A stretch of DNA of 59,940 nt from an uncultured Elusimicrobia bacterium (lineage in GTDB: Bacteria > Elusimicrobiota > Elusimicrobia > UBA1565 > UBA9628). Location of the stretch: contig CAYVFO010000001.1 of assembly GCA_964450975.1 (NCBI GenBank), positions 1-59,940 on the forward strand. The letters are read 5' to 3'. Within the stretch, counting starts at the first letter, position 1; each line of letters starts with the position of its first letter. Of this stretch, positions 18,711 to 49,334 are shown piece after piece. The position numbers were made by a program, and so were the translations under genes. The notes under the pieces are model-generated. The model saw only the letters and a program-made list of their open reading frames with translations, did no database searches and was not told where the DNA came from.

Positions 18711-19204
18711 AGCGGCCGCGGCTGATCGCGATCGCCGTCCTCGCGCTCGGAATGTTCCTCCTGCGCGACAAGGTGCGCGGCGTGTTCTTCTTCCTCGACG
18801 GTATCGACCTGATCATCCACGAGGCGGGCCATCCGATTCTCGGGATCTTCGGCTGGCGCTGGCTCATGATGGCGGGCGGGACGATCTTTCAGCTCGCCTG
18901 GCCGCTGGCGTTCGTCCGCCACTTCTGGAAGAACGGTCAGCCCAAGTCGGCCTACGCTTGCGTGCTGTGGTTCGGCCAGAACTTCCTGCACATCGGCCGC
19001 TACGCGGCCGACGCCCGCGCCCAGGAGCTGCCGCTGGTCGGCGGCGGGGAGCACGACTGGACCTATCTGCTCGACTGCTGGGGCCTGCTCGCGCGCGACA
19101 TCGGCGTCGGGATGACCTTCGATTTCCTCGGTTGCGCGATCATCGCGTGGTCGCTCGTCGCGCTCTGGGCCGAAGCGCGGCGTCCCGATCCGTCCTTGGT
19201 CTGA
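18707..19204 (+). CDS. small polytopic membrane protein with HExxH (HEAGH) motif
   Basis: About 165 aa. TTG start at 18707 overlaps the asnB stop; an alternative ATG lies at 18752. HEAGH is encoded at 18818-18832. About 4 TM helices and high GC3. Confidence 0.45.
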
Positions 19205-19450
19205 ACGGCAAACCACCAAGACACAAAGACACGAAGAACGGCGGCGGAAAGAACGGAACGGATCAACACGAAGACGGCGAAGGACGGCGAAGACGGATAA
19301 GAACGAAACGGAAAAAGGTGATACGGCGTACGGAGGCCATGGCCTCCGTACGCCGTTACCCTCAATCCGTTCTTCGCCGTCCTTCGCCGTTCTTGGCGCG
19401 TCGGCACGAAATCATCTTCGTGTTTTTCCGTTGTTCGCCGTCGGGCGAAA
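19205..19450. repeat. structured inverted-repeat intergenic element, copy 1 (MITE/REP-like; candidate bidirectional terminator)
   Basis: It fills the whole spacer between convergent stop codons at 19204 and 19451. It holds a perfect 34-nt palindrome (19323-19356) and a second stem of about 29 bp (19270-19298 pairing with 19365-19395). A 51-nt block and a 43-nt block are identical to copy 2. Confidence 0.8.
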
Positions 19451-45125: not shown

Positions 45126-45512
45126 TCACTCGGACTTGCCGAGGATGGCGGCGATGCGGTCGTGCAGCTTGGCCATCTCGAAGGGCTTCTGGAGGACCTC
45201 CGCCGCGCCGCTCATGAGCGCGATGCCCTTCTCTTTGACCGTGTCGCGGCTGGTCATGATCATGATCTTCGGGGCCTTCGCGCCGAGCTTGTTGGTGAGC
45301 TCGTAGGCGACGTGATAGCCGTCGATGTACGGCATCATGACGTCGAGGAGAACGAGATCGAGCGTCTCGTTGAGCGCCGTCTGCAGCGCGTCCTTTCCGT
45401 TGGCGGCCGCGAGGACCTCATAGCCCTGATAGGCGAGGTCCATCTTCAGCAGGTCGAGGAGATCGGGATCGTCGTCCGCGACCAGAATCCGCTTCTTTTT
45501 GGCGTCGGCCAT
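45126..45512 (-). CDS. stand-alone response-regulator receiver (CheY-like)
   Basis: 128 aa. DD pair (VADDDPD), phospho-acceptor LVLLDVMMP, conserved T (MTS) and K (QKPF). Confidence 0.9.
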   Translation of the reverse strand: MADAKKKRILVADDDPDLLDLLKMDLAYQGYEVLAAANGKDALQTALNETLDLVLLDVMMPYIDGYHVAYELTNKLGAKAPKIMIMTSRDTVKEKGIALMSGAAEVLQKPFEMAKLHDRIAAILGKSE

Positions 45513-45519
45513 TCTTCTC

Positions 45520-45547
45520 CTTATATGAGCGTTGGAATTCTACCCAA
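45520..45547 (-). promoter_or_regulatory. promoter/RBS region of the 12-gene array (two alternative -10 boxes)
   Basis: The minus strand reads TTGGGTAGAATTCCAACGCTCATATAAGGAGAAGAATG. Either TAGAAT (45537-45542) gives a ~20-nt leader carrying an AAGGAG SD, or TTGGGT-N16-TATAAG-N7-ATG gives a leaderless transcript. Confidence 0.4.
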
Positions 45548-45557
45548 AAATGGCACG

Positions 45558-45796
45558 AAACGACAACGGAAAACCACAAAGACACGAAGACACGAAGAAC
45601 GGCGACGGAAAGAATGGATAACGGAAAAACACGAAGACGGCGAAGGACGGCGAAGACGGATAAGAACGAAACGGAAAAAGATGATACGGCAACGGAGGCC
45701 GTGGCCGTTAAACCCTCAATCCGTTCTTCGCCGTCCTTCGCCGTTCTTGGCGCGTAGGACGTCGGACCATCTTCGTGTTTTGCCGTTGTCGCCGTT
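45558..45796. repeat. structured inverted-repeat intergenic element, copy 2
   Basis: Same orientation as copy 1. 45630-45680 is identical to 19267-19317 (51 nt) and 45713-45755 is identical to 19359-19401 (43 nt). The apical hairpin differs. It abuts the dnaE TAA stop (45795-45797). Confidence 0.8.
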
Positions 45797-48700
45797 ACGC
45801 GGCTTTCTTTTCCCAGCGGCGGGGGGCGATGACCGCGGGGGCGCCGGTGGACTCGATCGTCCAGCAGCGGCCGAGGATCGCCTCGACGCCCTCGAAGAGC
45901 GCCTGATTGAGGACGACGCGCATCTCGGTGTCGAGGACGGCCATGCCCTCGGAGGTCTCCTGCTCGAGGACGACGGGACAGGTGCCGGGGTTCTTCTCGA
46001 AGACGTCGCGCAGCTGCTCGAGCTTCTCCGTTCCGACGGACGGGTCGCACCGGAGGCGCAGGCGCTTGGCAAACTTCGTGACGGACTGGTCGAGCGGGGC
46101 CATCTCGTCGACGATGAGCTCGGCGGTGGCGCCGACGCCGGCCTCCTCGCCCTTGAACGAGAGCCGGCCCGTGACCGCGACGAACGCGCCGACCTTGCCG
46201 AGATTGTTGACGCCCGCGGCGTAGGTCTTCGGGAAGCAGAGCGCCGTGATCTCGCCGGTCAGGTCTTCCAGCGTGCAGATGACCCACGGCTCGCCCGTCT
46301 TCTTCGAGACCATCTTGCGCGTGCGGCTGATCATGCCCGCGAGCCGCACCGGCGTCGTGATCGCGGGCGTGAGCTGCGAGACCTCGTGCGTCGCGGCGGC
46401 CTTGAGCTGGGGCTTCACCGAGAGGAGCGGGTGGCCGGAGAAGTAGAAGCCGAGGACCTCGCGCTCGAAGGCGAGCGTGTCGTGCTCGGACAAGGGCTTC
46501 ACCGCCGGATCGGCCGGCGCGGGCGCGGCGTCGGCGGGCGCGCCCATGAACAGCAGGCCCTGGCCCTTGTCGAGGTCGGCCTTCACCTTCTGCTGGGAGC
46601 CGACGGCGCGGTCGACGGCGGCCAAGAGGCGCGCGCGGGCCGCGTTCGCGGGCTCGCCGGGGCGCAGGCAGTCCATCGCTCCGGCCTTGATGAGCGACTC
46701 GACGCACTTCTTGTTGATCGCGTGCAGGTCGACGCGCGCGCAGAAGTCGTCGATCGACTTGAACGGCTTCTCGCGCGCGGCCGCGACGATCGAGTCGGCG
46801 GCGCCGGAGCCGACGTTCTTGATCGCGAGCAGGCCGAAGCGGACCTCGCCGTTCTGGATGTCGAAGCGCGTCTCGCTCTTGTTGACGTCGGGCGGGAGCA
46901 CCTTGATGCCCATGCGCCGCGTCTCGTCGAGGTACGTGACGAGCTTGTTCTCCTTGTCCTCCGCTCCGATCGACGAGTGGCCGATCTCCGACGTGAGGAC
47001 GGCGGTCATGAACTCGATCGGGTGGTTCGCCTTGAGGTACGCGGTCTGGTAGGCGACGATGCCGTAGGCGACGGTGTGCGACTTGTTGAAGCCGTAGCCG
47101 CCGAACTTCGCCATCTGGTCGTAGATCTTGTTCGCGAGCTTGGGGGCGACCTTGTTGACGGTCGCGCCTTTGACGAACTTCTCGCGCAGCTTCTCGATCT
47201 CCTCGGGGATCTTCTTGCCCATGGCCTTGCGCAGTCCGTCGGCTTCGCCGGGCGTGAAGCCCGCGAGCTTCTTGGAGATCTCCATGACCTGCTCCTGATA
47301 CACCATGCAGCCGTAGGTGTCCTTCAGGATGGGCTCGAGGATCGGATGGTCGTACTTCACTTCCTGGCGGCCGTGCTTGCAGTCGACGAACATGTCGAGC
47401 ATGCCGGACTGCATCGGGCCGGGGCGGAAGAGCGCGATCGCGGACGCGATGTCCTCGAAGGTCGTCGGGCGGATGCGGAAGATGAGGTCGCGCATGCCCT
47501 GCGAGTCGAGCTGGAAGATCGCGAGCGCCTTCGCGGTGCGCAGCAGCTCGTAGGTCTTCTCGTCCCCGTTGGGGATCTTGTCGATGTCGAAGTCCTTGAG
47601 CGGGCCGCGCTTGATGAACTTGACCGCGTCGTCGATGATCGAGAGCGTGCGCAGGCCGAGGAAGTCGACCTTGAGCAGGCCGAGCTTCGGGCACCAGTCG
47701 CCGTCGTACTGCGTCGTGACGACGTCGGACTTCGCGCCCTTGGCGAGCGGCGTGTAGCGGACGACGGGCTCCTTGGTGATGAGCGTGCCGGCCGCGTGGA
47801 CGCCCGTGTGGCGCTTGAGGCCCTCGAGCTTGAGCGAGAGCTCGAGCAGCTGCTTGACCTGCGGGTCCTTCGCGAGCTCCTGCATCTCGGGGCCCTGCAT
47901 CGCCTCGTGCAGGTGGACGTTCGGGCCGGTCGGGATCTTCTTGGCGATCTCGTCGACCTGCATCAGCGGCATGTCCATGACGCGGCCGACGTCGCGCACG
48001 ACGAGCTTCGCGCCGAGGGAGCCGAACGTGATGATCTGCGCCACGCACTCCTTGCCGTACTTCTCGCGCACGTACTGGATGACTTTGTCGCGGCCCGTGT
48101 CGGCGAAGTCGATGTCCAAGTCGGGCATCGACTTGCGGTCGGGGTTGAGGAAGCGCTCGAAGAGCAGGCGGTGCTCGAGCGGGTCGGCGTTGGTGATGCG
48201 CAGCGCGTACGCGACGATCGCGCCGGCGCCGGAGCCGCGGCCGGGGCCGACGGGCACGCCGATCGATCTGGCGTGCTTGATGAAGTCCCAGACGATCAGG
48301 AAGTAGCCCGAGAAGCCCATGCGCCGGATGACGCCGAGCTCGAAGTCGAGGCGCTCCTTGTGCTCGGGCCGGAGGGTCCCGAAGCGCTCCTTGAGGCCCT
48401 CGATGCACAGGTGCTCGAGGTAGGAGTCCTGATTGTAGCCCTCGGGGACCTTGAACTCGGGCAGGAGCATCTGGTCCATCGGGATCTTCACGTTGCACAT
48501 CTCGGCGATCTTGAGCGTGCTCGCGATCGACTCGGGCGCGAACGAGAACAGCTTCGTCATCTGCTCCGGCGACTTGATGTAGAACTCGTGCGTCTCGAAC
48601 TTCAGCCGGTCGGTCTCCGCGAGCTTGCGGCCGGTCGCGATGCAGACGCGCGCGTCGTGGGCCTCGAAGTCGTCGGGCTTGAAGTAGTGGCAGTCGTTCG

Positions 48701-49334
48701 TCGCGACGAGGGGGATCTTCGTGCGGCGGTTGAGCTCGAGGAGCGCCTGCGTGACCTGGCGCTGCTTGTCGAGGCCGTGGTCCATGATCTCGAGGTAGTA
48801 GCTGTCCTGCTCGAGGTTGTCGCGGAACCACGTGACGAGCTTCTCGGCCTGGGTCAGGTCGCCGGCGAGGATCGCCTGGTTGAGCTCGGACTTGAGGCAG
48901 CCCGAGAGCACGACGAGGCCCTTGCTGTGCTTGGCGAGGAGCTCCTTGTCGATGCGCGGGTCGTAGTAGTAGCCCTCCTGGAACGCGATCGAGCAGAGCT
49001 CCATCAGGTTCTGGTAGCCCTCGTAGTTCTTCGCGAGGACCGTCAGGTGGCAGTTCTCTTTCTGGCTGTGGCCGCGGTCGAAGCGCGTGCCCTTCGAGAT
49101 GTACATCTCGCAGCCGATGATCGCCTTGAGGCCGACGGACTTCGCCGCCGAGTAGAACTCGACCGCGCCGTACATGTTGCCGTGGTCGGTGATCGCGAAG
49201 CCCTTCGCGCCCGACTCGGCGAGCGACTTGAGCGCGGGGGAGGCGTTGCCCTTCGCGTCCGTGAGCCTGATGACGCCGTCCATCAGGGAGTACTCGGAGT
49301 GGTTGTGGAGGTGGACGAACTCGGGCTTCGACAT
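45795..49334 (-). CDS. dnaE: DNA polymerase III alpha subunit
   Basis: 1179 aa. PHP domain N-terminus (FVHLHNHSEYSLMDG), polymerase core, and OB/tau-binding C-terminus. No intein. Confidence 0.97.
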   Translation of the reverse strand: MSKPEFVHLHNHSEYSLMDGVIRLTDAKGNASPALKSLAESGAKGFAITDHGNMYGAVEFYSAAKSVGLKAIIGCEMYISKGTRFDRGHSQKENCHLTVLAKNYEGYQNLMELCSIAFQEGYYYDPRIDKELLAKHSKGLVVLSGCLKSELNQAILAGDLTQAEKLVTWFRDNLEQDSYYLEIMDHGLDKQRQVTQALLELNRRTKIPLVATNDCHYFKPDDFEAHDARVCIATGRKLAETDRLKFETHEFYIKSPEQMTKLFSFAPESIASTLKIAEMCNVKIPMDQMLLPEFKVPEGYNQDSYLEHLCIEGLKERFGTLRPEHKERLDFELGVIRRMGFSGYFLIVWDFIKHARSIGVPVGPGRGSGAGAIVAYALRITNADPLEHRLLFERFLNPDRKSMPDLDIDFADTGRDKVIQYVREKYGKECVAQIITFGSLGAKLVVRDVGRVMDMPLMQVDEIAKKIPTGPNVHLHEAMQGPEMQELAKDPQVKQLLELSLKLEGLKRHTGVHAAGTLITKEPVVRYTPLAKGAKSDVVTTQYDGDWCPKLGLLKVDFLGLRTLSIIDDAVKFIKRGPLKDFDIDKIPNGDEKTYELLRTAKALAIFQLDSQGMRDLIFRIRPTTFEDIASAIALFRPGPMQSGMLDMFVDCKHGRQEVKYDHPILEPILKDTYGCMVYQEQVMEISKKLAGFTPGEADGLRKAMGKKIPEEIEKLREKFVKGATVNKVAPKLANKIYDQMAKFGGYGFNKSHTVAYGIVAYQTAYLKANHPIEFMTAVLTSEIGHSSIGAEDKENKLVTYLDETRRMGIKVLPPDVNKSETRFDIQNGEVRFGLLAIKNVGSGAADSIVAAAREKPFKSIDDFCARVDLHAINKKCVESLIKAGAMDCLRPGEPANAARARLLAAVDRAVGSQQKVKADLDKGQGLLFMGAPADAAPAPADPAVKPLSEHDTLAFEREVLGFYFSGHPLLSVKPQLKAAATHEVSQLTPAITTPVRLAGMISRTRKMVSKKTGEPWVICTLEDLTGEITALCFPKTYAAGVNNLGKVGAFVAVTGRLSFKGEEAGVGATAELIVDEMAPLDQSVTKFAKRLRLRCDPSVGTEKLEQLRDVFEKNPGTCPVVLEQETSEGMAVLDTEMRVVLNQALFEGVEAILGRCWTIESTGAPAVIAPRRWEKKAA

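Follow-up and report, generated by a model that had tools for sequence, protein, structure and literature searches.

A hairpin insertion between dnaE and a response-regulator gene of an uncultured Elusimicrobia bacterium as a probable relic of a mobile GxxExxY cassette family

REPINs and the RAYT transposases that accompany them are the closest known functional counterpart of the repeat family described here, a member of which lies between dnaE and a response-regulator gene of an uncultured Elusimicrobia bacterium. Both families consist of short intergenic inverted doublets that form long hairpins, reach tens of copies per genome, and are distributed patchily between species; in both, a single-gene partner is flanked by the same repeats, and in neither is there a target-site duplication. 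They differ in the partner itself, which is an HUH Y1 transposase in the REPIN/RAYT system and a GxxExxY protein with the PD-(D/E)XK fold in the family described here. They also differ in their arms, those of REPs being a single imperfect palindrome and those of our element being tandem 8-nt arrays past a CCAC head, and in their range, REPs being species-specific whereas the arms of the element family are near-identical across phyla. Because the RAYT genes of the genus carry another repeat, the element cannot be counted as a member of the REPIN/RAYT system.

MITEs (Correia/CREE, ERIC, Nezha, and RUP) provide another useful comparison. Like our element, they are non-coding, shorter than 300 bp, and bounded by terminal inverted repeats, with a presence or absence that varies among relatives, and they are inserted beside stops and promoters, where they are able to alter transcript ends or supply promoter parts. 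Unlike MITEs, however, the element has neither a target-site duplication nor a parent IS encoding a known transposase, whether DDE or other, and assignment to the classical MITEs therefore fails. The only gene-bearing relatives found encode a GxxExxY protein and, at only ~0.5 kb, are unlike the parents of MITEs. Rho-independent terminators resemble the element in being GC-rich hairpins at the 3' end of a gene. In contrast to the element, whose stem of ~85 bp has no U-tract past it, such terminators have a stem of 5-15 bp followed by a U-tract, and they do not share the element's dispersal, homology between copies, and absence in relatives.

The remaining point of reference is the GxxExxY family itself (TIGR04256 / PF13366 PDDEXK_3), whose genes are enclosed by the same arms both in sister genomes and in a range of phyla, whereas at our locus the gene has been lost or was never present. 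The function of GxxExxY / PDDEXK_3 (PF13366) is listed as unknown in Pfam (tabulated in PMC3424549), and the PF13366 family forms mixed bacterial and archaeal clades with multiple transfers (Steczkiewicz et al. 2012, PMC3424549), a pattern consistent with a mobile cassette. No paper tying GxxExxY genes to flanking repeat arrays was found in the searchable literature, and the motif sequence used as a literature search word returned eukaryotic primer sequences only.

The window, i.e., the whole stretch of 59,940 nucleotides analysed here, carries dnaE, encoding the DNA polymerase III alpha subunit, on the minus strand at 45795-49334 (NF004226, 1347 bits), with its TAA stop at 45795-45797. Also on the minus strand, at 45126-45512, is a gene for a single-domain response regulator (RR) of 128 aa (PF00072, E = 6e-24), and the intergenic spacer between the two genes is 282 nt long (45513-45794). 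The RR promoter, located by a consensus scan and by comparison with more than 20 orthologous spacers of the genus, occupies 45537-45566 on the minus strand and consists of a -35 box TTGTCG (45566-45561), an 18-nt spacer, and a -10 box TAGAAT (45542-45537); a ribosome-binding site, AAGGAG, was read from the sequence at 45517-45522 (minus strand) and is conserved as ATATAAGGAGAGGGAATG in relatives. RR orthologues across the genus are 82-93% identical and syntenic with dnaE (L018-L046), and both TTGTCG-N18-TAGAAT and ATATAAGGAGAGGGAATG are kept in the orthologous spacers of more than 20 genus species, so that the promoter and ribosome-binding site proposed in a first-pass annotation of this DNA from its letters alone were called correctly. 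The co-directional genes past RR, which that annotation had described as a 12-gene array, have mixed functions (PFK, a HAMP protein, a patatin, DapF, and a POT transporter) and therefore need not form a single operon. The linkage of dnaE and RR across the genus is tight. An ORF of 50 codons at 45540-45692 on the minus strand falls within the repeat arms and was taken as spurious.

The element in this spacer, which we refer to as copy 2, accounts for everything inserted from the dnaE stop to the RR -35 box, at 45565-45795, as judged from a five-copy alignment and from the empty site in the related genome G053. Its limits were set by the ends common to five long copies (AACGG... and ...CGCCGT), and the exact ends are fuzzy. 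That the element abuts the dnaE TAA had already been noted, with limits of about 45558-45796, and is borne out by the refined coordinates: the last base of copy 2 is the third base of the TAA, its first two fall within the -35 hexamer, and neither flank retains any native spacer sequence.

Copy 2 can be divided into several modules, all given here on the plus strand. A head module, AACGG-AAAA-CCAC-AAAGACAC-GAAGACAC-GAAGAACGG, at 45565-45602 is the signature of the family and occurs once per long copy (5 in the genome). Within it, 45574-45593 reads CCACAAAGACACGAAGACAC, i.e., a CCAC head followed by at least two tandem NRAGRCAC units; this head is present in all five long copies, and the head module is unpaired in the copies of the source genome. 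The left arm of the long hairpin (45617-45670; inverted repeats I1 and I2, five-copy consensus fold) consists of an ACAC head followed by GAAGACGG / CGAAGGACGG / CGAAGACGG units. The apical hairpin, AACGGAGGCCGTGGCCGTT, lies at 45691-45709, and the alignments identify it as a form, shortened by deletion, of the 34-nt palindrome found in the other long copy in the window (copy 1), the same short apex being found in the copy on contig C13. The right arm and a decayed right head (CTTGGCGCGT...CATCTTCGTGTTTT replacing CTTTGTGTCTTTGTGTCTTTGTGG), together with a terminal CCGTTGTCGCCGT, extend over 45717-45795, as delimited by inverted repeats and alignments. Copy 2 is not closed by a canonical inverted GTGG arm; its right end does align to the canonical right head but is decayed to GTGT plus a single unit.

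The spacer is filled with many nested inverted repeats, among them a perfect 20-nt pair (45637-45656 / 45725-45744), and the 19-mer CTTCGCCGTCCTTCGCCGT occurs four times in the window against an expectation of 0.17. The minus-strand RNA of the spacer folds at a predicted -122.6 kcal/mol as compared to -84.3 +/- 5.2 for shuffles (z = -7.3), and the predicted hairpin of copy 2 spans ~85 bp. A consensus fold is retained in all five long copies with one clean compensatory GC>AU pair, in the C13 copy, which with only five copies is thin covariation support. The retained hairpin fits hairpin-dependent propagation or arm-to-arm templating equally well as selection on RNA structure.

The first-pass annotation had recognised copy 2 as the second copy of an element, with conserved inner arms and an apical hairpin replaced by a different one. 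The second copy is real: 45565-45795 aligns with copy 1 (19204-19445, between convergent genes, its first base overlapping a TGA stop at 19202-19204) at 86-88% identity over ~240 nt, with identical inner blocks of ~58 nt in the left arm and ~44 nt in the right arm that contain the perfect 20-nt inverted repeat. The apex, on the other hand, was not replaced by an unrelated hairpin. It is the copy-1 palindrome (19323-19356) minus 1 nt and 8 nt and with one A>G change, and this short apex is common to copy 2 and the C13 copy, with a copy on contig C145 being intermediate. Nor are there only two copies, since the 3.03-Mb, 81%-complete assembly holds at least seven (5 long, 2 short), at 75-88% identity. 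Aligning the genomic copies, a check that the annotation itself had suggested, showed that the five long ones share their ends and a consensus fold. No direct repeat that would represent a target-site duplication was present at the junctions of these five.

Copy 1 is the only long copy between convergent genes; the other four lie in tail-to-head spacers. In 4/4 tail-to-head copies, a sample of n=4 only, the CCAC-head end points to the downstream gene (C145:5511-5530, C13:16735-16760, C63:8940-8965, and window 45537-45566), and a box resembling a -10 or -35 element (TAGAAT, TGTGATAAACT, TCTATAT, and TTGTCG) lies at a distance of 0-7 nt from it. Three of the five long copies also touch a stop codon with a gap of 0-1 nt: TGA/ACGG, TA/ACGG, and TAA/GAAAAACGG, the slash marking the junction (window 19202-19208 and 45795-45797; right junction of the C145 copy). 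With the genome at 69% G+C, such contacts may be the result of A/T-rich targets being preferred.

Comparison with the orthologous spacers was informative, as dnaE-RR synteny holds throughout the genus. The closest relative, G053, with a dnaE C-terminus 84% identical to that of the source genome, has a spacer of 80 nt in which the promoter is present and the element is absent. The site is thus polymorphic for the insertion, and its emptiness in G053 marks copy 2 as a lineage-specific insertion. The dnaE-RR spacer could be read in 22 species, and in 12 of these (G053 and 11 others) it is only 39-105 nt long. The six shortest that we read (39-71 nt) contain the promoter alone and no long hairpin, which indicates that no terminator is required at this site. 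A 90-nt spacer in G049 contains a small hairpin-plus-T-run, and one of 94 nt in G011 contains a remnant of a REP family characterised by GGGGTCWGACCTCCCGTTGTTGCG.

In other species of the genus, this spacer is occupied by unrelated palindromic repeats. Inverted doublets of GGGGTCWGACCTCCCGTTGTTGCG fill it in G004, G046, and G005 (L022, L024, and L031), in addition to the remnant in G011. This repeat is itself dispersed, with 48 arms in G046, 30 in G005, 24 in G004, 18 in G011, and 12 in G001, and it flanks Y1_Tnp genes in G011 (C33:24282-25102), G050 (C427:888-1706), G001, and G046, so that the GGGGTCWGACCTCCCGTTGTTGCG family and its Y1_Tnp genes fit a REPIN/RAYT system in this Elusimicrobiota genus. 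We also observed that dnaE is two codons shorter (GGK* vs GGKPS*) in G046, G012, and G005 (L024, L030, and L031), with a GGGGTCWGACCTCCCGTTGTTGCG-type repeat directly past the stop. In G042 and G015 (L023 and L026), the spacer is filled by yet another palindromic repeat, GGTGCCAGGCCTCCCATTATCCCATTAC, the third family at this site. The dnaE-RR spot tolerates mobile hairpins and does not require one.

For the inner part of copy 2, and hence the long form, a comparison with 53 other genomes, of which 37 belong to the genus and 16 to the same order, yielded no homologue. A pair of overlapping 24-mers taken from the left arm also had no exact match, one of them having been compared with a metagenome collection and the other with a species-genome collection, so that neither strain-level polymorphism nor a parent cassette with long-form arms could be found. 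Together, these results indicate that only this species has the long form. The homology of the family nevertheless extends through the genus: the head module recurs in sister genomes as inverted pairs 60-120 nt apart, and the head, apex, inner right segment, and decayed right head of copy 2 align with hairpin elements of 110-140 nt in G024, G017, and G011, although the right head is recognisable in alignment only and a canonical CCAC-octamer head is found at the left end only. To judge from these alignments, the extra length of the long form is an inverted copy of the right arm set on the left, making a long near-perfect stem.

Arm counts are patchy across the genus, with 60 in G042, 29 in G011, 22 in G024, 10 in G043, and 6 in G017. 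None was counted in the nearest relatives G050, G001, and G049, nor in G053, where the zero reflects a variant octamer in its one cassette; a reversed-pattern control gave zero everywhere. A T-rich tail is found in only 19 of 77 canonical members of the family, and the bases flanking these 77 elements are complementary rather than direct repeats.

The gene-bearing form of the family was seen in sister genomes. A complete copy in G042 consists of an arm, a gene of ~400 nt, and an inverted arm, and its interior ORF matches TIGR04256 (GxxExxY protein) with E = 1.2e-38. Among 38 genus genomes, four GxxExxY genes lie above the family cut-off (in G053, G043, G024, and G042), and G041 has one weak sub-threshold match. 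Inverted arms bracket all four genes above the cut-off, with G053 using the variant CGAGGCAC, and in G024 the cassette and the 11-12 gene-less hairpins of that genome have identical arms. No TIGR04256 match was obtained in the source genome, the assembly of which is 81% complete.

In G011, ~20 contig ends stop inside one repeated element (L196-L215), being 97-100% identical within it and differing in their flanks. At these ends, the head module follows closely on the inner side of an outer inverted repeat, CTCCCAGTTCATGRGGTTTT, and the ends encode a GxxExxY N-terminus, MDKPQRHQDTKDFW, and C-terminus, LFNFNVPLIRDGIRRIVL*, the octamers being part of the coding sequence. As read from these contig ends, G011 carries about ten near-identical cassette copies, the signature of a recent multiplication. 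In many of the G011 cassette flanks, GTCAAG is also conserved at a distance of 10-11 nt outside the cassette ends and may represent either a preferred target or a larger composite element.

Outside the genus, the exact 20-mer CCACAAAGACACAAAGACAC was found in more than 120 loci of species genomes and in 12 viral contigs. The phyla include Cyanobacteriota, Bacteroidota, Chloroflexota, Acidobacteriota, Planctomycetota, and Desulfobacterota, and it was also found in Proteobacteria, Chlamydiota, Verrucomicrobiota, and a Methanotrichaceae archaeon. Most instances are hairpins with a median length of 72 nt, and the majority do not adjoin a GxxExxY gene. Those GxxExxY genes that do lie within the motif-sampled loci are all bracketed (3/3). 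Within 120 loci, four motif pairs that might have enclosed a parent IS are widely spaced (0.5-2.4 kb), one of which (L102, 576 nt) brackets a GxxExxY gene. In one hairpin, from Nostoc sp. NIES-4103 (L091), the partner arm is made of CTCTGCG units and pairs with its CACAAAGA arm only by G-U and on one strand, a hint that some members pair at the RNA level.

To look at the association from the side of the protein, we took a motif-unbiased sample of 80 GxxExxY genes chosen by protein similarity across phyla. The strict motif, with a chance expectation by our own estimate of ~0.004 per 250-nt flank, was present as both arms at 31 genes and as one arm at 8, and ~27 of the remaining 41 have inverted flanks of variant units, e.g., CCGC-AGAGACGC or 9-10-mers. 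In all, the arms bracket about half to 80% of the 80 sampled genes. The association could also come from the gene preferring to insert into pre-existing hairpins.

Taken by its position, copy 2 could be a selected intrinsic terminator or insulator that ends dnaE transcription and shields the RR promoter from read-through. It lies in the dnaE 3' UTR directly ahead of the promoter, its hairpin is very stable, the minus strand has short T runs past the apex and in the distal arm, and copy 1 lies between convergent genes. The first-pass annotation held that both copies sit exactly where a terminator is needed. This part of it is not supported: the species with spacers of 39-105 nt have no comparable hairpin, the empty site in a sister species and the dispersal of the repeat point elsewhere, and stem-plus-U-tract matches in the two copies (2 and 1) are not above those in shuffles (1.2 and 0.8). 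In addition, the T run falls within the long stem and not past its end, the C13 copy adjoins a separate hairpin-plus-T-run candidate for termination, and T-rich tails are as rare in the family as noted above, all of which leaves selection as a terminator or insulator unlikely. The same empty site, in showing that the element is dispensable, also weighs against an RNA-level cassette comparable to the intervening sequences of 23S rRNA, in which the arms would pair, RNase III would cut and part the dnaE mRNA from the downstream RNA, and spread would be secondary. Such a cassette could make use of an imperfect ~85 bp duplex that is possible in either transcript direction, and read-through RNA would include the element in the 4/5 long copies that lie in tail-to-head spacers. 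However, some members of the family lie between convergent genes and others ahead of promoters, positions in which co-transcription cannot be taken for granted, and we rate this model as quite improbable.

A REPIN-type doublet moved by a RAYT (a Y1 HUH transposase) would account for an intergenic, multicopy inverted doublet with a long hairpin, and the source genome does have four PF01797 (RAYT-like) genes. The CCAC/GTGG heads are moreover reminiscent of the GT[AG]G tetranucleotide that REPs have. Nevertheless, no element sequence was found near any of the four Y1_Tnp genes of the source genome, Y1_Tnp occurs in 33 of 38 genus genomes without relation to the element count, and the Y1_Tnp genes of sister genomes are flanked by the different repeat GGGGTCWGACCTCCCGTTGTTGCG, making movement by a RAYT very unlikely. 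Finally, the strong predicted structure might suggest a gene for a structured non-coding RNA or a cis-regulatory leader of the RR operon. We find this scarcely credible, as the conserved RR promoter is downstream of the element and places it outside the RR leader, no promoter is predicted inside the element, and relatives do not have it. When the region was compared with Rfam at a permissive E-value, the only matches were to miRNA precursors, at 22-32 bits against thresholds of 96-137, and these were rejected.

The explanation we prefer, and consider probable, is that copy 2 derives from a mobile inverted-repeat element of the GxxExxY cassette family and is a form that has no gene, is partly decayed, and is private to this species. 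The first-pass annotation had offered selection on structure and recognition of the arms, for instance by a transposase or an RNA-binding factor, as ways to account for the conserved stems, and it is recognition of the arms by a transposase-like factor that is favoured by a dispersed, patchy inverted-repeat family that is absent at the orthologous site of the nearest relative. The arms of the family are built from a CCAC head and tandem 8-nt units (NRAGRCAC), and under the cassette explanation the full-length form would be a cassette of ~0.5 kb with one gene, for a GxxExxY / PDDEXK_3 nuclease of the PD-(D/E)XK fold. We infer that this protein recognises the array hairpin and mobilises both the cassettes and the miniatures. 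After the split from the nearest sampled relative, the element would have arrived, by landing or by being copied, in the short stretch that separates the dnaE stop from the -35 box. This stretch is a permissive site, in which other species of the genus have acquired their unrelated palindromic repeats. The arms would be conserved and complementary because members of the family exist and propagate as hairpins, and the stem would have been lengthened in this species by the copying of one arm onto the other, inverted. As the 81%-complete assembly has no GxxExxY gene and its copies are diverged by 12-25% and lopsided, they are probably immobile relics. At present, the element may act as an RNA hairpin in the dnaE 3' UTR that slows read-through, protects the 3' end, or is a target of RNase III. 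The RR gene retains its own intact promoter, and any effect of the element on termination would be incidental.

On this basis, the locus itself is an ordinary hairpin-repeat insertion, and the family behind it is a variant, apparently undescribed, of the theme of a dispersed palindrome plus a dedicated enzyme. More tentatively, and with odds that we put somewhat below even, GxxExxY genes and inverted arrays of 8-nt units may constitute an undescribed class of ultra-compact selfish cassettes in bacteria, archaea, and phages that yields gene-less, REPIN-like miniatures. In such a class, the nuclease would recognise the array hairpin and drive its copying, and the miniatures, remodelled by arm-to-arm templating after loss of the gene, would sit flush with stops and promoter boxes and could rewrite transcript ends.

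For the locus, this removes a regulatory story, since the structured spacer is an insertion and not a conserved control element, and the promoter at 45537-45566 is what should be annotated as functional at the dnaE-RR junction. For the family, the locus becomes an anchored example of a hairpin family that crosses phyla, for which there are an empty site, sister genomes with cognate cassettes, and recent multiplication in one of these genomes, and the very large GxxExxY family gains a concrete, testable job. If true, this would be a second partnership of a nuclease with a dispersed palindrome besides RAYT/REPIN.
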